A stretch of DNA of 45,051 bases from Nitrospinota bacterium (lineage in GTDB: Bacteria; UBA8248): contig JAPPHK010000255.1 of NCBI GenBank assembly GCA_028820795.1, forward strand, positions 1-45,051, in the 5' to 3' direction. The notes below the pieces were generated by a model. It was not told the origin of the DNA, searched no databases, and was given only the letters and a program-made list of their open reading frames with translations. Shown piece by piece: positions 7,398 to 44,856 of the stretch (positions are counted from its first letter, which is position 1; each line of letters starts with the position of its first letter). The translations under genes and the position numbers were made by a program.

Positions 7398-8176
7398 ACG
7401 CAAGCGCCCGCGTCACCGTTCTGGGCTGCGGAACTTCCACCGGCGTTCCTTCCATCGGGTGCAAAAGCGCTGCGTGTCTTTCGGATGACCCCAGGAACAA
7501 GCGGCTGCGTCCAAGCATCATCATCGAGCACAACGGGCGAAACCTGCTGGTGGATACGGGTCCCGACTTGCGTGAGCAGGCGCTCAGACACGAGATTACC
7601 CGTGTGGACGCCGTGGTCTATACACACTATCACGCGGACCATACGCACGGCATCGACGATTTGCGCGCCTTTAATTTTCTGATGGGAAAACCGATTCCTT
7701 GTTATGCCTATCCCAATACGGTAAAGATTCTCTACCAGAATTTCAGCTACATTTTCAATCACACTCGGGAATACAGCGGCTTCAAGCCGCAACTCACGCT
7801 GGCGGAGATTGGAAATTCCCCTTTCGAGGTGGCCGGCATGAACGTCATACCCTTCGAACTCGAACACGCCGGCATGAAGGTGATGGGCCTGCGGGTGGGG
7901 GATTTCGCCTACGCGACGGATTGCAACGCCATTCCGGAAAAATCCATGGAAATACTGAAAGGAGTGCGCATCCTCATCCTGGACGCCCTGCGCCACCGGG
8001 AGCACCCCTCACACTTCACGGTCGCCGAAGCACTGGAAATCGTCAAGGAACTCAAGCCCGAGCAGACGTATTTCACCCACACCAATTTCGAGTTGGAATA
8101 CTACGAAACGAACCGGAACCTGCCCCGTGGCGTCGAACTCGCCTATGACGGGTTGAGTTTTGAGGTCTTCTTGTAG
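7394..8176 (+). CDS. MBL-fold metallo-hydrolase (PhnP-like phosphodiesterase family)
   Basis: 'YTHYHADHTHGIDDLR' is the HxHxDH motif. The ATGA overlap with the ltaE stop implies translational coupling. Confidence 0.85.
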   Translation: MNASARVTVLGCGTSTGVPSIGCKSAACLSDDPRNKRLRPSIIIEHNGRNLLVDTGPDLREQALRHEITRVDAVVYTHYHADHTHGIDDLRAFNFLMGKPIPCYAYPNTVKILYQNFSYIFNHTREYSGFKPQLTLAEIGNSPFEVAGMNVIPFELEHAGMKVMGLRVGDFAYATDCNAIPEKSMEILKGVRILILDALRHREHPSHFTVAEALEIVKELKPEQTYFTHTNFELEYYETNRNLPRGVELAYDGLSFEVFL

Positions 8177-8185
8177 GTAATCGCG

Positions 8186-9010
8186 CTATGCGTCGCCCGT
8201 ATCTTCGGGAATTTGCTCCGCCTCATCCGTCCGCCTTGCGCTCGCAGCCTCGCAAAGGTCCGAAAACAGGAGATACCCCGCCAGGTAATACGAGATCGAA
8301 GTCACCATCACGCCCGTCTGCAGCAGAACCTGCCCTAGGAGGCCGCCGCCGAAAATCCCCTGTATCACTTGCCAGAGTATGAACCAGACAAGCAGATAGG
8401 TCATCGCCAGGACGACTATGGTTCTCTCGCCACCGCTCGATATCCCGCCAGCGCGGCGGAAGGCCTGGGCGAAGTCATCCCCATACAGCAACGCTGTAAG
8501 AGTGCAAAAATAATACCGAACCGCAGGCGTGAGAACGAGAAAAACCGTGACGGCGAACGAGAACGGGAGCCCGATGGGCGATTCTCCGAACAGAAATCCA
8601 AAGATGAACAACGCTGCCGCAAACCCGATGACACCCAGCAACTGCAAACCAAAGGTATACGCCAGGTCGACCTTGGCGACGGCTTTCAGGCGATTCACTG
8701 CTTCTGCGATGTCCCAAACGGCCCCATCACCCACGCGCTTGGACTCGACCCGCAATATCAGGAGTATGAACAGGAACACCTGCAATACGCGCAAAATCAA
8801 CTGCGAGATGATCATGAGCGGAAACAGCAACATGAGATTCGCCTCGGGTTCCATCAGTGATTTGATGGAAGGATGCACCGAGAGCGCAATCATGGATATG
8901 GGCACGTAAATCGCGACGAAAAGGCGGGTGATCTGCGCAAAATCCGCCGCATGGTTGCGCACACCGTACTCGATATATCTGGAAAGTGGTCCGAGTGCTG
9001 TATTTTTCAT
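8186..9010 (-). CDS. Integral membrane protein, unknown function (274 aa)
   Basis: A long ORF with at least six hydrophobic segments, host-like codon usage, and an acidic C-terminal tail. Confidence 0.7.
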   Translation of the reverse strand: MKNTALGPLSRYIEYGVRNHAADFAQITRLFVAIYVPISMIALSVHPSIKSLMEPEANLMLLFPLMIISQLILRVLQVFLFILLILRVESKRVGDGAVWDIAEAVNRLKAVAKVDLAYTFGLQLLGVIGFAAALFIFGFLFGESPIGLPFSFAVTVFLVLTPAVRYYFCTLTALLYGDDFAQAFRRAGGISSGGERTIVVLAMTYLLVWFILWQVIQGIFGGGLLGQVLLQTGVMVTSISYYLAGYLLFSDLCEAASARRTDEAEQIPEDTGDA

Positions 9011-9193
9011 ATAAAAAACAAACCCTTAGAAGAATGTGGTCACTAGCGCCAGCGTTGATCTCCATCCTTCAGGAACGATACACTAGGAACCTACTTCCGC
9101 CGCCCTGCGAATCGCGAGACCGCTCGAGTAAACCGCCCCGCAACCGATGACGACACTATACTCGCTCATGATGAGGAATAGAAGGCAGGCTCC

Positions 9194-9982
9194 ATGAGTT
9201 CCGCGACAATGGTGACACAAGGCATCCAGGCGCTTGGTAGGCGCGCAATGGAGATCATCGCCGGCATGGGAAAAGCCGCACTCTTCCTGCTCGAGTCCAT
9301 TCGGTGGATATTCGCACCTCCGTGGCGGCCCTCTCTCCTGATGCGCCAGATATACATCATCGGCACGGGTTCGCTCTCCATCGTCTTGCTAAGCGGCATG
9401 TTCACCGGAATGGTGCTGGCGCTGCAGGGCATTTACGCTTTTCGAAAATTCGGTTCCGAAGCCTTCCTGGGACCCGCCGTAGCATTCAGCCTCATCCGCG
9501 AACTTGGGCCCGTGCTTACCGCCCTCGTCGTTACCGGAAGGGCGGGTTCAGCCATGACGGCAGAAATCGGCATCATGCAGATCACAGAACAGGTGGACGC
9601 TCTCAAGAGCATGGCCGTGAACCCTCTGCAGCGCCTCGTCTCTCCCCGGCTGCTCGCGGGCGTGATAGTATTCCCCCTGCTGACGGCGCTTTGCGACCTT
9701 ATCGGCATATTCGGAGCCTACCTCGTAGGCGTGGAATTAATGGGATTGAGTTCGGGCACCTTTTTCGGAGAGATGCAGGATAAGATTGAGATGGTCGACA
9801 TCAACGTAGGCTTATGGAAGTCCATCGTCTTCGGTCTCATCGTCACGTGGGTCTGTTGCTATAAGGGGTATCATTGCGGTCACGGGGCCGAGGGAGTGGG
9901 CAAGGCGACCACCTCGGCCGTGGTGCTCTCTTCCGTCCTGATATTGGTGGGCGATTATTTCCTCACCTCGATCCTCATTTAA
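9194..9982 (+). CDS. mlaE: Mla-type ABC transporter permease
   Basis: 'LIRELGPVLTALVVTGRAGSAMTAEIGIMQITEQVDALKSMAVNP' is the characteristic MlaE core. Confidence 0.92.
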   Translation: MSSATMVTQGIQALGRRAMEIIAGMGKAALFLLESIRWIFAPPWRPSLLMRQIYIIGTGSLSIVLLSGMFTGMVLALQGIYAFRKFGSEAFLGPAVAFSLIRELGPVLTALVVTGRAGSAMTAEIGIMQITEQVDALKSMAVNPLQRLVSPRLLAGVIVFPLLTALCDLIGIFGAYLVGVELMGLSSGTFFGEMQDKIEMVDINVGLWKSIVFGLIVTWVCCYKGYHCGHGAEGVGKATTSAVVLSSVLILVGDYFLTSILI

Positions 9983-9997
9983 AGAAGGAACGGAGCC

Positions 9998-10444
9998 TTG
10001 TACCGAAAAAATGTGGAATTCGGCGTCGGCATATTCGTTCTGGCGGGTATCCTTGCGCTCGCCTATCTCTCGATCAACCTCGGCGGTCTGGATATTTTCG
10101 ATGACGGCACCTATGAAGTCTCGGCGAATTTCACGACCGCCACGGGTTTGAGAAAAGGCGCATCGGTGGAAATGGCGGGCGTGCGGGTCGGGCGAGTGAG
10201 CGGAATCTCCCTCGACGGGGAGGATGCGAAAATCACGCTGCGCATCGATGAGAGCATTGAACTCTCGCGGGATTCCATCGCCTCCATCCGAACGAAAGGG
10301 GTTTTGGGGGACAAATACGTGAGCCTCAGCCAGGGAGGGTCGGAAAAAATCATTCCACCGGGCGGACGGATTCGAGAGACGGAACCCCCGGTTGACATCG
10401 AGAAACTCATCGGCGACTTTGTTTTCGGCAAGGTGAAGAAATAA
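9998..10444 (+). CDS. mlaD: MCE-domain protein MlaD
   Basis: An N-terminal TM anchor followed by the MCE fold ('GLRKGASVEMAGVRVGRV'). TTG start at 9998, 15 nt after the mlaE stop. Confidence 0.88.
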   Translation: MYRKNVEFGVGIFVLAGILALAYLSINLGGLDIFDDGTYEVSANFTTATGLRKGASVEMAGVRVGRVSGISLDGEDAKITLRIDESIELSRDSIASIRTKGVLGDKYVSLSQGGSEKIIPPGGRIRETEPPVDIEKLIGDFVFGKVKK

Positions 10445-20994: not shown

Positions 20995-21180
20995 GCCCGA
21001 AGACTCGAGGCCCATATCAGTAATGACCCCGCCTTGTGCCGTGTGAGGTTCGCTTTGAACCCAGCTTTCGCCAGGTGGGCGTCCACCTCCATGGCTTTAG
21101 GCCGAACTCCCCGAGAGGAATAGCTCACCACCGTGGATCAGGACTCCCGGTACAATAGTACTGGGTCAAAATGCTTTCCC
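20995..21180 (-). ncRNA. ssrS: Probable 6S RNA (ends approximate, +/- 20 nt)
   Basis: It lies in a 337-nt non-coding gap between zapA and the cyclo-ligase gene, the conserved zapA-ssrS-ygfA synteny. Minus-strand segments 'GGUGGUGAGC', 'GGCCUAAAGCC' and 'CCUGGCGAAAGCUGGGUUCAAAGCGAACC' parallel E. coli 6S 'GGUUGGUGAGC', 'AGCCUUAAAAC' and 'CCUUGAACCAAGGGUUCAAGGGUUACAGCC'. Confidence 0.65.
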
Positions 21181-21279
21181 CCATCACGAACACGGCAGGG
21201 TCAAAGCAAGTGAGCATTATGACACTAAAATCTGGGGATGAATACAGGAAAAACCTATTGCGTGGGAAGAAACTTCTGC

Positions 21280-29209: not shown

Positions 29210-29284
29210 TGGTAGGCGCGGGCGGTTTTGAACCGCCGACCTCTTGCGTGTCAAGCAAGCGCTCTCCCCCTGAGCTACGCGCCT
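29210..29284 (-). tRNA. tRNA-Val (anticodon GAC), CCA encoded
   Basis: Folded manually. Acceptor AGGCGCG/CGCGCCU, D stem GCUC/GAGC, anticodon stem CUUGC/GCAAG with loop UUGACAC, T stem GGCGG/CCGCC, 75 nt in total. Confidence 0.93.
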
Positions 29285-32890: not shown

Positions 32891-32975
32891 TGGTGCGAAG
32901 GGGGGGACTCGAACCCCCACGCCCGAAGGCACTGGATCCTAAATCCAGCGCGTCTACCAGTTCCGCCACCCTCGC
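32891..32975 (-). tRNA. tRNA-Leu (anticodon UAG), long variable arm, CCA encoded
   Basis: Folded manually. Acceptor GCGAGGG/CCUUCGC, anticodon stem CUGGA/UCCAG with loop UUUAGGA, T stem GGGGG/CCCCC, 85 nt in total. Confidence 0.93.
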
Positions 32976-40262: not shown

Positions 40263-41435
40263 ATGTACCTCGCCACGAGTGACCTCATACTTCCCACCAC
40301 CATCACCGGCTCCCTGCCCCGGCCCGCCTGGTTCCGCCAGAACATCGGGCGCAGGACGTTCCGTGAAGCGATGATCGACGCGGAATTCCGCGAGCAGTAT
40401 CTCGACAACGTCTCCTGCGTCATCCGCGATCAGGAGCGCGCTGGGCTCGACATCGTGACCGACGGCGACGCGCGCTTCGACACGAACGTGGGCGGTCGCG
40501 ACTGGGTGGGCTACATCGTCGACAGGCTGAGCGGCTTTTCGGGCCATGAGACATCGAGGAGCCACGCCACCTGGGGCGGGTCCGTGCCGGGCGAGATCAT
40601 GTTCGAGGTGCTCGAAGCCCGGATGCTGCCCAAGGTCACCTCGAAAGTCGGCGAAGGCCCCCTCGAATACGCGCAGATGTGGCGCAGCGCGCAGGCGATG
40701 ACGGACAAGCCGCTCAAGTTCGGCTCCATCAGCGCGGATTGCGTGGAGTCCATCGTCTCGAACGAGTTCTATGACGACAGGCGCGAGCTCTGCCTCGACC
40801 TGTGCGAGATCATGCACGCCGAATTCCACCGCCTGGCGGACGCGGGCTGCCAGATTTTCCAGGTGGAAGAACCCTGGGTGCACCGCTTCGATTTCCACGC
40901 CGAGGATTCGGAGATGTCGATGGAGTTCTACGTCGAGGCGTTCAACAGGAGCGTGGCGGGCCTGAGGGACAAGCTGGAACTGTGGTGCCACACCTGCTGG
41001 GGCAACCCGGCCCAGCAGCGGTTCTACGAGTCATCCAAGAGCTACGCGCCCGCCCTGGAATACATGAACGAGCTGGACGTGGACGTGCTCACCTTCGAGT
41101 GCGCGAGCACGGGCGGGATGGACCTGGGCGAGATCGGAAAGCGCATCACCAGACCCAAGGTGGCCATCGGCGTCATCAACCACCGGGGGCTGCAGGTGGA
41201 GCGCCCCGCAGAGGTGGCCGCCCTCATCCGCAAGGCGCTCGAGACGATTCCCGCCGAACGGCTGTGCATCTCGACCGACTGCGGCTTCGGGCGCGAGGGC
41301 ATGAGCCGCCGCCACGCGTTCTACAAGATGGTGGCCCTCTCAAGGGGGACGAACATCGTGAAGAAAGAACTCGGCCTGCCCGAAACCTACATCCCCGCGA
41401 GCGACGGCGCGTTCACGCTGAGTGACGAGGATTAG
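40263..41435 (+). CDS. Single-domain MetE-like (cobalamin-independent methionine synthase C-terminal domain / UROD-MetE superfamily) zinc methyltransferase
   Basis: 'LPTTITGSLPRP.W', 'DIVTDGD', 'QVEEP', 'WCHTCWGN' (His-x-Cys) and 'ISTDCGFG' (Cys), so the zinc ligands are retained. SD GGAGGA upstream. Confidence 0.85.
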   Translation: MYLATSDLILPTTITGSLPRPAWFRQNIGRRTFREAMIDAEFREQYLDNVSCVIRDQERAGLDIVTDGDARFDTNVGGRDWVGYIVDRLSGFSGHETSRSHATWGGSVPGEIMFEVLEARMLPKVTSKVGEGPLEYAQMWRSAQAMTDKPLKFGSISADCVESIVSNEFYDDRRELCLDLCEIMHAEFHRLADAGCQIFQVEEPWVHRFDFHAEDSEMSMEFYVEAFNRSVAGLRDKLELWCHTCWGNPAQQRFYESSKSYAPALEYMNELDVDVLTFECASTGGMDLGEIGKRITRPKVAIGVINHRGLQVERPAEVAALIRKALETIPAERLCISTDCGFGREGMSRRHAFYKMVALSRGTNIVKKELGLPETYIPASDGAFTLSDED

Positions 41436-41436
41436 G
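41417..41436 (+). repeat. Left copy of a perfect 20-bp direct repeat, GCTGAGTGACGAGGATTAGG
   Basis: Identical 20-mer at 44837-44856. The copies diverge immediately on both sides. This copy holds the last codons and the TAG of the MetE-like gene. Confidence 0.95.
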
Positions 41437-41564: not shown

Positions 41565-41828
41565 ATGAAACCGACGAGAGAACAAAAAGAGCGGGAAATC
41601 GACGACAACCTCGAATTCTTCCTGGCGGAGCTTCCCCGCCTCAAGCAGCAGCACTTCGGCAAATTCGCGCTTCTCAGGAACAAGGAGCTGGTCGCGGTTT
41701 TCGACACGGCCGAGGATGCGCAGACCGCGGGCGCCCGATTTTTTAAGGACGGGCTCTTTTCGATCCAGAAAATCGACGACACGCCCGCCAATCTGGGCTC
41801 CTATTCCTATGCCGTGCATCTGGGGTAA
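41565..41828 (+). CDS. Small hypothetical protein (87 aa), first gene of a two-gene overlapping module
   Basis: SD GGAAGGAGG lies 5 nt upstream of ATG 41565. Host-like GC. The 3' end overlaps the next ORF's ATG (41809) by 20 nt. Confidence 0.65.
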   Translation: MKPTREQKEREIDDNLEFFLAELPRLKQQHFGKFALLRNKELVAVFDTAEDAQTAGARFFKDGLFSIQKIDDTPANLGSYSYAVHLG

Positions 41829-41997
41829 GCACGACAGAAACCAGGTGTTTCTGGACGTCAAGATTTTGTCGCTGGAGGATGTCGTTCATCTGCGGGCCGG
41901 AACAGGCGAGAAAACCCTACGCCCCTTCAAGGCGCTGGTGGACAAACCTATTGTGCATAGATTTTTATCTTATCTCTCTTCGAGAAGTGTTTTTTAG
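41809..41997 (+). pseudogene. Truncated retropepsin-like (clan AA aspartic protease-like) ORF, interrupted right after '...FKALVD'
   Basis: 'MPCIWGKHDRNQVFLDVKIL....RPFKALVD' fits the N-terminus of small bacterial retropepsin-like proteins up to the point where D-T/S-G-A is expected. From about 41944 the composition becomes AT-rich and the frame reads unrelated 'KPIVHRFLSYLSSRSVF*'. Confidence 0.5.
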
Positions 41998-42019
41998 GGC
42001 AGTGGATCAAAGTTTAAAA

Positions 42020-42445
42020 TTAGGTGGGATCAAACGTGAATATATCTGCCATGGATAGCGCACGTCGAAATTCTTTTTCACCTGATTTATCATCCAAATC
42101 TTTAGTAATTTCTAAATTGATATGAGCATACGCCCATTTTTCCCAAGGTTCTTTTATATCATCTGGACGCCATACGATTTGAATGCAGAACGCAAACTTT
42201 TCCTTCACCTTTTCTACGATGATCAGATAATCTTCCGCTTTGCAGTGTGCCTGCCTAGAATCGTAAAACTCCTCAATTTGCAGTTCGACCATTTCTACAT
42301 CATTCTCTTCCAGCTTAGTTACACTCCAGGCAGATAGTGTTCTTTTATTGAATTTGAACGCACTAGCCCTAGGTCTGGATTCTGCGTCACTCCAGTCGTC
42401 TGGCCGAATGAATCTACACAGGATTTCTTGCAGAGGGACTTTCAT
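42020..42445 (-). CDS. Operon gene C: unknown protein, 141 aa
   Basis: ATG 42445 lies 3 nt after the TAA of gene B. AT-rich codon usage. No motif I can assign. Confidence 0.75.
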   Translation of the reverse strand: MKVPLQEILCRFIRPDDWSDAESRPRASAFKFNKRTLSAWSVTKLEENDVEMVELQIEEFYDSRQAHCKAEDYLIIVEKVKEKFAFCIQIVWRPDDIKEPWEKWAYAHINLEITKDLDDKSGEKEFRRALSMADIFTFDPT

Positions 42446-42448
42446 TTC

Positions 42449-43084
42449 TTATTGTTTTAATATCTCAATAAATTCGCTGGCCGTTGCGTCCATCATTCGA
42501 TCTAAGAATTTGTTTTCAGAATCGTAAATGCTCATATCTATTTTCCCACACACTTCCATTTCAGCCATGATTAAGCGACCATCTCGCAATCTAAAATCAA
42601 AAGAAAGTTCTCCGTCAAAATCCATTACCATATCTGGGTGTTCAACCGATTCGATCATTGCCTTGGCGATTCTAATTGCATTTTCAACGATCTCATTAGA
42701 AGGTTTATTGCCTTCGACACCATTCCGAAATTTAAACAGTTCATCCCGGATCTTATTGTTTGGAACAGACATTATTTGATTTATGTTCTCTTCAATGCCT
42801 GGAAATCGTATTGATATTGAGGCGCACTCATTGGAGTCAACGACATAAACTATTTTGGGTTCCGGGAGAAAGAATCCATGCTGTCTGCGGTCATCCAAGT
42901 TGGGACTAACTGTAAAAATGCACCATCCCCTAGAAGAATCCTTGGAGAACACCATCGGTGTCGCTCTAGATCTGTTGTTCCACCGATGGTGTTCTCCAAG
43001 GATTCTTTCTTGTGGTGAATTGTGCGATTCCCTTATGAAATTTGCGGTATCTTGTATATGTTTATTTGGGGCGGTCAGGGCCAT
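42449..43084 (-). CDS. Operon gene B: unknown protein, 211 aa
   Basis: ATG 43084 (a TTG at 43087 is also in frame) lies 23 nt inside the 3' end of gene A, with GGAG 9 nt upstream. No motif I can assign. Confidence 0.75.
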   Translation of the reverse strand: MALTAPNKHIQDTANFIRESHNSPQERILGEHHRWNNRSRATPMVFSKDSSRGWCIFTVSPNLDDRRQHGFFLPEPKIVYVVDSNECASISIRFPGIEENINQIMSVPNNKIRDELFKFRNGVEGNKPSNEIVENAIRIAKAMIESVEHPDMVMDFDGELSFDFRLRDGRLIMAEMEVCGKIDMSIYDSENKFLDRMMDATASEFIEILKQ

Positions 43085-43742
43085 CAATAAGCTCCACTAA
43101 ATGATATGTCTGTTGAAGAATATTTTGTAAATATCTTAAAATTTCAGGCTCTTCAGGAAAACGAGCTTCATTTACGTGGTGATTAACAGACATGAAAACT
43201 GTTGATGTGGTTCGGTCATTTAATCTTGGCTCAATTCTCACGCCCAAATTATTTGTAGCGTCTTTTTTGAGCGTGAATCTGCCTGCGCCTTCAATCAGTT
43301 CCCCTTCTTGGGGGCCGGAGAAGAGAGGCGAATAAAGGCGACTTGCAATGTATTCCATAGCGGTTTTCCCACTATCTTGTTCGTAGGAAATATCAACGTT
43401 GAATCCAAAGGCATTCGGGGTTACATCTAAATTTAGACTCAGTACTGCTTGGCGGGCAATTTGCACAAATCGAGGCAAGAAATCTTTGTGTGGGTAATCA
43501 ATAAGTATGCGAGTGATTTTAGGATTCGATGAAGTGGCAATAGTTATACGTTCTTTGGGCAAGGAAAACATTTTTTCATTAGGCGATCCTATGTTCCCCA
43601 AGGTCCCCAAGGAATCGCCCAGTACAATAATATCAGTACTTAATGCCTTCGATAATTCTTCGATTAATCGCATTTCTTGCGATAGCTGAATGTCGACAAA
43701 AGCAACATCCATTCTTATGATATCTTCGATACGTGTTCCCAT
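43062..43742 (-). CDS. Operon gene A: unknown protein, 226 aa
   Basis: ATG 43742 is preceded by consensus SD AAGGAG (43757-43752) with a 9-nt spacer. AT-rich codon usage. There is a weak, unverified resemblance to the uncharacterised TIGR04255-type family. Confidence 0.78.
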   Translation of the reverse strand: MGTRIEDIIRMDVAFVDIQLSQEMRLIEELSKALSTDIIVLGDSLGTLGNIGSPNEKMFSLPKERITIATSSNPKITRILIDYPHKDFLPRFVQIARQAVLSLNLDVTPNAFGFNVDISYEQDSGKTAMEYIASRLYSPLFSGPQEGELIEGAGRFTLKKDATNNLGVRIEPRLNDRTTSTVFMSVNHHVNEARFPEEPEILRYLQNILQQTYHLVELIDGPDRPK

Positions 43743-43786
43743 TCTTTTCTTCTCCTTGGGTAGGTGTAATTTCCCTTCCCCTGCAC

Positions 43787-43816
43787 AGGCTATCCACCTA
43801 ATAAAAATTATGTCAA
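43787..43816 (-). promoter_or_regulatory. Putative promoter of the A-B-C operon
   Basis: The minus strand reads TTGACA (43816-43811), an 18-nt AT-rich spacer, then TAGCCT (43792-43787), about 45 nt upstream of ATG 43742. Confidence 0.4.
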
Positions 43817-44167
43817 CCAGAATAAATTGTGGTGGACCCGAAGCGTTGTATTGCCATTTTAACCGTAGCCTGTTTTCTCATCGTCATATCCTACCATGCA
43901 GGCGCTCACGGAGGAGGTCTTAATCAGGTGGTAGATTAGTTTGAAAATCAAGGCGGCGGATCCCGCGAAACCAATCCGCATATATACAATATAAATTTTA
44001 TTGCTCATTTTCACAACTTAACGTGATATAAATCTTGCCATTAATCCCAAGACCCAACCAAAAGAACAAATATAATTTTACCCCGAACCAGTGGGAGCAA
44101 ATCGCAATTTAATGTCAATGACAGTCAAAAAAGTTAACTGAATAGGTAAAAGAGAAGGCCTTCAATC

Positions 44168-44206
44168 GCTCGCCACATGCGGTTTCGTAGTCCGCATGTG
44201 GCGAGC
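44168..44206. other. Perfect 15-bp GC-rich inverted repeat (hairpin) inside AT-rich non-coding DNA
   Basis: GCTCGCCACATGCGG (44168-44182), a 9-nt loop, then CCGCATGTGGCGAGC (44192-44206). On the minus strand the palindrome GAAGGCCTTC and TCTTTT follow. Confidence 0.8.
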
Positions 44207-44836
44207 ACCCCATAAAAACGTCCGTAGTGCATCCTTTCGTCTCTAGTATTTGCATTACTGTAAATTTTACCAATAATGGATATGTATATAATTCCCTAAA
44301 TCTTTTCAAAAAACTTGCAGATTTTTTTCACAAAAACTTATATTATCTCCAGCAATACAGAAGAAAGAAAAAAATCTTCGCAGTATACAATCCGATTAGA
44401 AGTATTCTTTAGTAACTCTGTTGTACGCTGAAGAGATTCCTCTAATTATTGTTAGTCAAGCATTGTCATAACAATGCAGACGAGCATTGCAGCGCGATGC
44501 TTTAGCATCTTACGTCAATCGTTTTGACGCAAAAATGAAATAGAATTTTTCTAGTCTTCTCCATTTCAGGTGCAGTATGAAGCGTTGTGACAGTAAAAGC
44601 CAAAAAGAGAAGGAAAGAATTCATCGACAAAGCTGTTAGCTTTGAGAAGCGAAGCTTTAATAAAGAAGGATGAAATCTGGCACACTCTTTCCATTACCAA
44701 AGACAAAGAAATGGGTGTTCGGGGCTGGAGTGCGCCTTTCGCCACTGCTCAGTGGCACAGAAAGAACCGGGCGGTGATTTCCTCATGTCTCGCCTTAAAC
44801 GGCAAGAGCGGGACGAGAGTCGAATTGATTATCCTT

Positions 44837-44856
44837 GCTGAGTGACGAGGATTAGG
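44837..44856 (+). repeat. Right copy of the perfect 20-bp direct repeat
   Basis: Identical to 41417-41436. It contains the TAA stop (complement of 44852-44854) of the ftsH-like gene. Confidence 0.95.

Follow-up and report, generated by a model that had tools for sequence, protein, structure and literature searches.

Defence systems typically combine one constant component with effector pairs that can be swapped. In CBASS, Lamassu and retrons, for instance, the sensor is conserved and the effector modules are exchanged. For the defence nucleases of the bacterial Schlafen group, fused TBP-like domains are counted among the putative sensors (PMC13056530). PADLOC also holds 145 'phage defence candidates' (PDC), which were nominated as embedded in BREX, DISARM or Type I restriction-modification (RM) loci (Payne et al., bioRxiv 10.1101/2024.01.29.577857). 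One of these candidates, PDC-M32, bears on the locus that we describe here, a cassette of three genes that we call A, B and C. The cassette lies on contig JAPPHK010000255.1 of the Nitrospinota bacterium assembly GCA_028820795.1 (GTDB lineage Bacteria; UBA8248), and by "the window" we mean the whole stretch of 45,051 nucleotides of this contig that was analysed.

We found that A-B-C is a conserved, horizontally mobile cassette that occurs in the same order in at least 11 other bacterial genomes. Judging by sequence similarity, the three proteins are not orphans, and A belongs to an uncurated family of more than 200 sequence clusters. The similarities further suggest that the cassette is a three-gene, A-containing variant of a candidate class, tied indirectly to PDC-M32. 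A preliminary description of the window, made from its letters and open reading frames (ORFs), had singled out the three genes as a candidate for an undescribed defence or conflict system. We consider that reading plausible and the overall interpretation partly supported.

Conservation of the cassette

We read the gene context at 11 loci with a homologue of A, spread across the family (L083 to L093). At every one of them a B-position gene (171–296 aa) follows A on the same strand. It overlaps A by 1–14 nt at nine loci and lies within 15 nt of it at the other two. Translated searches and ORF inspection showed a C-position ORF (137–186 aa) abutting or overlapping the end of B, again at all 11. 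The preliminary description had taken the three genes for one unit, and their constant order bears this out. Gene callers annotated the third gene only in L085 and L090; it is uncalled at the other nine loci and in the European Nucleotide Archive (ENA) copy of our contig (L001), presumably on account of its AT-rich composition in GC-rich genomes.

The homologous cassettes sit at unrelated chromosomal sites. The GC content of the three-gene block is 0.42–0.53 compared with 0.53–0.73 in the flanks, it is lower than the flanks at every locus but one (L087), and the low-GC block is roughly coextensive with A-B-C. The neighbours differ from locus to locus. The cassette is between mnmE and mnmG in L083 and beside phage lysozyme, holin and Mu gp27-like genes in L084. 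In L085 it has a PBP gene and uvrB on either side and an adjoining HNH gene, and in L086, L087 and L089 it is surrounded by housekeeping genes. TrwC relaxase and transposase genes are the neighbours in L088 and L091, a cluster of PIN, Phd and HicB genes in L092, and a pair of an ABC-type ATPase and DUF3226, together with an NYN gene, in L093. Defence, toxin-antitoxin or mobile-element genes are thus found only at some of the loci.

Some of these neighbours could also mean that the cassette does not serve host immunity and is carried by mobile elements or prophages for offensive or accessory ends, for example to counter defences, exclude superinfection or assist transfer. This would fit the phage genes at one copy and the TrwC relaxase or insertion sequence (IS) elements beside others, the GC content below that of the host, which is typical of phage-derived DNA, and the best structural match of A, which is a viral protein (see below). 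We consider it quite unlikely, as DNA and translated searches of 50,697 phage genomes gave no relative of A, B or C, and pattern scans and searches with the A and B alignments gave no confirmed match in IMG/VR and Joint Genome Institute (JGI) metagenome contigs. In addition, most copies are isolated three-gene islets without a phage or plasmid backbone.

The three genes in the window

The three coupled minus-strand ORFs are exactly where the preliminary description placed them, with the lengths, overlap and gap that it gave (Table 1). The ATG of B (43084) lies 23 nt inside A, whose stop codon is at 43064-43062. Between the TAA of B and the ATG of C (42445) there are 3 nt (GAA, one codon), and B and C are in one frame. 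B is preceded by a GGAG Shine-Dalgarno (SD) sequence 7 nt upstream, while the SD of C is weak. For A, both the AAGGAG with its 9-nt spacer and the TTGACA box that had been reported are present, but no convincing -10 hexamer follows the TTGACA and the site is absent from the promoter-scan output.

Three co-directional ORFs of at least 141 aa were seen in none of 2000 simulations with matched composition, which excludes a chance origin of the three ORFs. Codon-position asymmetry is significant in A, in residues 51–211 of B and in residues 52–141 of C, and not significant over the first ~50 codons of B or of C. Homologues confirm the reading frames of all three genes, for C from residue 1. Because homology starts there, we take C to be translated from its first residue despite the non-periodic first ~50 codons, and the conserved A-B overlap supports the start of B at 43084. 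We found the identical cassette in two other public assemblies, ENA scaffold ROBB21-1_SAMN13943213 (L001) and a Logan contig of SRR10996927 (L002), which apparently stem from one and the same sample.

The variable N-terminal part of B in the window contains a perfect inverted repeat (predicted to fold very stably as RNA, z = -7.3) whose two arms are the only copies in the window. We considered whether this hairpin is part of the A-B-C system and rejected it; it has no counterpart in any of the 11 homologous modules and, being restricted to the window copy, does not belong to the system's design.

The hairpin does raise the question of whether the window copy is cargo in decay, a remnant in a degraded islet that looks intact but does not function. 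The islet around it has indeed visibly degraded: its protease is truncated, and of the nuclease gene a frameshifted piece is left. The 27-bp hairpin interrupts B, whose first 50 codons lack coding periodicity, no convincing -10 box is present, and the cassette is known from what appears to be a single sample. On the other hand, all three ORFs are open, A keeps all its near-invariant residues and C its conserved R, S and H, and the SD sequences and the A-B overlap are preserved. We therefore give decay only a slim chance.

Gene A defines an uncurated family

We ran an exhaustive HMMER search with A, in which counts are of cluster representatives at a threshold of E<=1e-3. It returned 211 relatives, 123 of them at E<=1e-10. 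They are nearly all 210–230 aa long and collinear over the full length at 22–37% identity, and the closest members (phmmer E 3e-33 to 1e-28) are collinear over residues 1–220. The preliminary description had placed the three proteins in no family. It is true that no named family was matched, but A clearly has relatives.

In an alignment of 80 family members the near-invariant residues are R65, Y83, P84, G113, N115, Y131, G152, P172, R173, N187, H189 and P196, and the A of the window retains every one of them. None of the 80 sequences matched Pfam or NCBIfam at E<=0.01, PADLOC gave two isolated borderline matches only, and where the sources name these proteins they are called 'hypothetical protein'. 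Scans of A, B and C from the window against Pfam, NCBIfam, PADLOC and PHROGs gave nothing significant, and neither did PDB sequence and profile searches with the three proteins and their alignments.

A word-index search of 5.8 billion proteins matched A, B and C each only to themselves. Proteins with 30–47% identity lie in the same assembly collection, several of them called as genes, and the word index showed none of them. The exhaustive search contradicts the word-index result, and so orphan status that is taken from a word index alone is unreliable.

An AlphaFold model of A from the single sequence had a pLDDT of 33.6 and was unusable for fold searches. The model from the alignment (AF2) was confident, with a pLDDT of 91.9 and a pTM of 0.87, and predicts two tandem beta-alpha-beta(3-4)-alpha lobes, between which we could detect no internal sequence repeat. 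Among solved structures, Foldseek placed TBP chains at the top (E 1e-4, probability 1.0), at TM-scores of 0.36–0.41 and a root-mean-square deviation of ~10 Å. The sequence of secondary-structure elements in the model agrees with two TBP-type domains. The catalytic domains of McsB and arginine kinase and Bet v 1-like proteins came next. The best structural match overall was an unnamed 202-aa viral protein (E 9e-9, TM 0.58–0.64). Structure prediction, which the preliminary description had suggested for these proteins, therefore gives the modelled A a fold class (TBP-like or helix-grip) and no function. The conserved polar residues are mostly on or beside predicted beta-strands, chiefly in the second lobe, and may form a putative ligand- or nucleic-acid-binding surface.

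This fold class has many small-molecule binders and enzymes, and Bet v 1-like and arginine-kinase-type domains match A. The cassette could then be an accessory operon that has nothing to do with conflict, for example a small-molecule binder with partners for regulation or niche adaptation, that is often transferred. The loci that have housekeeping neighbours only would agree with this. We regard it as very unlikely, since the swapping of B-C pairs, the hypervariable N-terminus of B, the unrelated insertion sites and the PDC-M32 matches described below are hallmarks of conflict systems, and neither transporters nor enzymes accompany the cassette consistently.

Genes B and C vary as matched pairs

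A can be aligned across all of the loci, while B and C vary as matched subtype pairs. The C-terminal ~100–110 aa of the window B are 45–47% identical to the B proteins of L084, L085 and L086 (E 1e-27 to 1e-32) and 29% identical to that of L091 (E 5e-15). With BLAST, the N-terminal halves of these B genes showed no similarity to that of the window. The window C matches, from residue 1, the ORFs just 3' of B in L084, L085, L086, L091 and L092 (tblastn, 30–42% identity, E 1e-14 to 3e-26). The window and these five loci make up a subtype that we call B1 + C1, in which the C1 of L092 is clear and its B1 weaker. L089 and L090 make up B2 + C2. L087 is a further subtype, with a PDC-M32A-type B and a C that resembles PDC-M32B-type proteins.

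When we aligned 12 C-position proteins, H108 was invariant and R11 and S38 were near-invariant, with an acidic residue four positions after the His in 10 of the 12. The C subtypes have the motifs R-x-h-x-P, S.AF, LSV and H-x3-[DE] in common, in this order. Profile-profile comparisons and a decoy-controlled hidden Markov model (HMM) search did not link the C subtypes, or the B subtypes, significantly. From the order of the motifs we find homology across the C subtypes and across the C-terminal domains of B plausible.

The pairing of B and C could point instead to a tripartite toxin-antitoxin or addiction module that serves its own maintenance and is not primarily anti-phage. In such a module C would act as toxin and B as antitoxin, with A as a regulator or a chaperone-like protein. 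The genes are small, tightly overlapping and promoter-proximal, B and C co-vary, one copy is amid PIN, Phd and HicB genes while others adjoin relaxase and transposase genes, and the distribution in AT-rich cassettes is patchy. Against this, no known toxin or antitoxin family was matched, as Pfam and NCBIfam found no such domain in A, B, C or their homologues. The presumed antitoxin B exceeds the presumed toxin in size and varies in its N-terminal half, and an accessory regulator would not usually be the best-conserved component, as A is. We also found no member of the A family in 72,556 plasmid records when the cassette, A, B, C and a central A-family member were used as queries. We think that a toxin-antitoxin module is unlikely.

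The link to PDC-M32

The connection with PADLOC comes from the homologues. Among the B proteins only that of L087 matches PDC-M32A, with its C-terminal domain (E 5e-32, model positions 254–371 of 376), and 2 of the 12 C-position proteins match PDC-M32B (best E 1.4e-43). Going by mutual similarity, these two most probably belong to L087 and L093. For the window C, PADLOC gave only a weak match to PDC-M47B (E 0.0017).

Relatives of the L087 C are found on plasmids, in two-gene loci where a 337–377-aa protein is followed by an overlapping protein of ~140–150 aa, all annotated as 'hypothetical protein'. The examples are on Rhodococcus qingshengii pN9T4-2 (L094), Rhizobium leguminosarum pRLN2 (L095) and Sinomonas atrocyanea pSA01 (L096). 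By size and similarity we infer that these loci are PDC-M32. In the Sinomonas locus a type I restriction R subunit is ~2 kb away and an ATP-dependent DNA ligase adjoins; this is the only one with a type I R subunit near a PDC-M32-like pair. We also tried the idea that PDC-M32A is a fusion of A and B and rejected it, as the hhalign probability was 0.5–1.5% and there is no A-like ORF in the plasmid loci.

Proposed function

Of the explanations considered we find it the most likely, at about even odds, that A-B-C is a conflict module of bacteria, either for defence against phages or as a related system built on a toxin. The hints are the PDC-M32A and PDC-M32B matches, the PIN/Phd/HicB, HNH, ABC ATPase with DUF3226, relaxase, transposase and phage lysis neighbours at homologous loci, and an HNH nuclease that is encoded in a sister version of the window islet (L012). 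The conserved gene order and the PDC-M32 link in L087 speak indirectly for the defence or conflict candidate of the preliminary description, whose function is proposed from context only.

Several points weigh against a conflict module. At four of the 11 homologue loci all neighbours are housekeeping genes, and context was read in 11 of more than 200 A-family clusters. The context evidence is limited further by the absence of the A family from the phage, plasmid, IMG/VR and JGI collections. In family and PDB scans of the cassette proteins we recognised no effector domain, be it nuclease, NADase, pore or other, and the matches of A to solved structures are at fold-class level only (TM 0.36–0.43). 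The B and C of the window do not match the PDC-M32 models (for B there is no PADLOC match at E<=1), hhalign gave a probability of 0.2% between B1 and the PDC-M32A-type C-terminal domain, and C1 against the PDC-M32B-type profile was not significant. Because the window B and C miss these models and profiles, their link to PDC-M32 runs only through the shared A and the gene order. The members of A-B-C and PDC-M32 alike are candidates from sequence and context. The window copy, with its odd hairpin in B, may perhaps not be fully functional.

If A-B-C is a conflict module, it could work as follows. A would be the conserved sensor, with its beta-sheet face as the binding site for a ligand or nucleic acid. 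The effector would be C, a small enzyme working through the conserved Arg, Ser, His and acidic residues. B would be an adaptor or inhibitor, with a subtype-specific C-terminal domain that pairs with the cognate C and a fast-evolving N-terminal half that confers specificity. Triggering would then release the activity of C against the cell or the invader. This specific division of labour (A sensor, B adaptor or inhibitor, C effector) is doubtful in our view, leaning towards unlikely. Somewhat less doubtful, and still tentative, is the broader proposal of an undescribed family of conflict systems in which a TBP-like A controls exchangeable B-C pairs, C represents a new class of effector enzyme and PDC-M32 is a two-gene branch of the same effector repertoire.

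Should A-B-C prove to be a working conflict system, it would bring a new type of sensor, a stand-alone TBP-like family that spans more than 200 sequence clusters and lacks a curated model, and a new small effector family in C. It would also provide a functional context for one of the 145 PADLOC candidates. The cultured hosts of the L094–L096 plasmids are possible experimental material for the related two-gene system. The cassette is in any case a natural example of a minimal three-gene unit that moves between GC-rich genomes without a mobility gene. Third genes that are missed by gene callers and false orphan status from a word index would conceal such systems in automated surveys.

The insertion site and other features of the window

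The GC content is 0.40–0.44 over 42–45 kb compared with 0.55–0.66 in most of the contig, two other lower-GC stretches excepted. At third codon positions (GC3) it is 0.36–0.40 in A, B and C and 0.90 in the flanking metE-like gene. The composition of the cassette is foreign to its host, as the A/T-ending codons had already indicated to the authors of the preliminary description. The metE-like gene itself has relatives at 91–98% protein identity in Nitrospinota-like metagenome-assembled genomes, and those with a name are sponge-metagenome bins.

Table 1. Positions of the features discussed, numbered from the first letter of the window.
Feature	Position	Strand	Remarks
Gene A	43062..43742	-	226 aa; ~220-aa uncurated family, predicted two-lobed TBP-like alpha/beta fold; proposed sensor or ligand-binding component
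Gene B	42449..43084	-	211 aa; variable N-terminal half and conserved ~110-aa C-terminal domain; subtype B1
Gene C	42020..42445	-	141 aa; conserved R11, S38, H108, E112; subtype C1; proposed effector
Upstream signals of A	43752..43816	-	TTGACA 43816-43811; AAGGAG SD 43757-43752, 9-nt spacer; read from the sequence
Inverted repeat in B	42934..43007		perfect, 27-nt arms, 20-nt loop
Small upstream ORF	43859..44014	-	51 aa, GTG start
AT-rich cassette	41945..44668		2,724 bp; A-B-C and ~925 bp of unique upstream DNA; replaces 688 bp of an L014-type islet
AT-rich DNA upstream of A	43743..44668		~925 bp
Inverted repeat upstream of A	44168..44182 / 44192..44206		perfect, 15 nt
Older-islet remains, left	41565..41943	+	intact 87-aa gene 41565-41828; first 45 protease codons 41809-41943; tblastn with L014 proteins
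Older-islet remains, right	44660..44838	+	frameshifted internal fragment of the third gene (377 aa in L014); tblastn
Direct repeat, left copy	41417..41436	+	20 nt, perfect; 3' end of metE-like gene
Direct repeat, right copy	44837..44856	+	20 nt; overlaps stop of minus-strand ftsH
ORF at contig start	4..834	+	276 aa; GC 0.42
6S RNA gene	21022..21204	-	Rfam, 79.7 bits
tRNA-Val(GAC)	29210..29284	-	
tRNA-Leu(TAG)	32891..32975	-	

The two copies of the direct repeat GCTGAGTGACGAGGATTAGG bracket 3,400 bp in the window. In three related loci (L004, L005 and L009) the site is empty, and the convergent metE-like gene and ftsH overlap by the 20 nt of GCTGAGTGACGAGGATTAGG. Other relatives have inserts of ~56, ~90, ~200, ~2,300 and ~2,900 bp at the same site (loci L003–L015), so that we regard it as a variable hotspot in this lineage. 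The island-bearing L012 and L014 have the left copy of GCTGAGTGACGAGGATTAGG only. The 20-nt duplication may be an att core, a target duplication or a recombination scar. That the repeat and the insertion are a k-mer assembly artefact was ruled out, as three assemblies agree and the relatives show the empty site and older islets.

The older islet is intact in L014 (7392–9301), where it consists of an 87-aa gene, a gene for a 146-aa retropepsin-like protease that matches Pfam gag-asp_proteas (4e-9) and Asp_protease_2, and a 377-aa gene. This third gene has no Pfam match, and its C-terminal part differs from that of its relative in the L012 islet (7725–10019), which has a Pfam HNH nuclease domain at its end and is split by an IS110-family transposase. 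The 87-aa gene and the third gene are present in both islets and the protease only in that of L014. By eye, the N-terminal part of the third gene may be PUA/EVE-like.

In the window, homology to L014 ends after the GAC codon of the catalytic DTG of the protease (~41944) and restarts at GATGAAATCTGG inside the third gene (44669). We conclude that the AT-rich cassette replaced 688 bp of the older islet. The cassette itself has no terminal repeats and no mobility genes. The comparison with L014 and the empty sites agrees with the preliminary description: foreign DNA without mobility genes was inserted into an islet that is bounded by repeats and holds a small two-gene module. The cassette would have arrived by illegitimate replacement inside the older islet at the variable hotspot.

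None of the related loci has a homologue of the AT-rich DNA upstream of A, which contains a short perfect inverted repeat. It also contains the small 51-aa ORF, which has coding-like periodicity and was called by the ENA gene caller as well. This ORF has no homologues, no Pfam match and no counterpart in related loci, and whether it is part of the A-B-C unit is uncertain. The ORF at the start of the contig lies in a low-GC stretch, has no Pfam match and is probably one more gene gained by horizontal transfer, truncated where the contig ends. Housekeeping 6S RNA and tRNA genes in the window confirm a chromosomal context.

Comparison with known systems

The likeness of A-B-C to CBASS, Lamassu, retrons and Schlafens would lie in the constant component, A, joined to partners that vary together, B and C. 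By sequence and domains A-B-C is unrelated to any of these systems, and the analogy is architectural only. For C we noted by eye a likeness to R-S-E ADP-ribosyltransferases (R11, 'LSV' and 'QVE' after H108), which is not accompanied by a Pfam or PDB sequence match.

In the preliminary description A had been likened to TIGR04255, a family of similar length and with a beta-rich two-part pattern. This comparison did not hold at the sequence level, as the TIGR04255 HMM in the NCBIfam library is unmatched by A (E<=1) and by the 80 family members (E<=0.01). In its two tandem lobes the model of A is closest to TBP among solved structures (PDB 1mp9 and others). It differs from TBP in that the TM-scores given above go with only 9–12% identity and the lobes lack a sequence repeat. 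McsB/arginine kinase and Bet v 1-like folds match about equally, and there is no indication of DNA binding or a role in transcription for A.

The PDC-M32-like plasmid loci have two genes and no A-like gene, and by hhalign the N-terminal ~250 aa of their long protein are unrelated to A, whereas the window cassette has A as a separate, conserved third component. The window cassette is also between the metE-like gene and ftsH in a degraded islet and not in or beside BREX, DISARM or RM. The two share their layout, with a longer protein followed by an overlapping protein of ~140 aa as in B-C, and in both the C-position proteins carry the four ordered motifs from R-x-h-x-P to H-x3-[DE].

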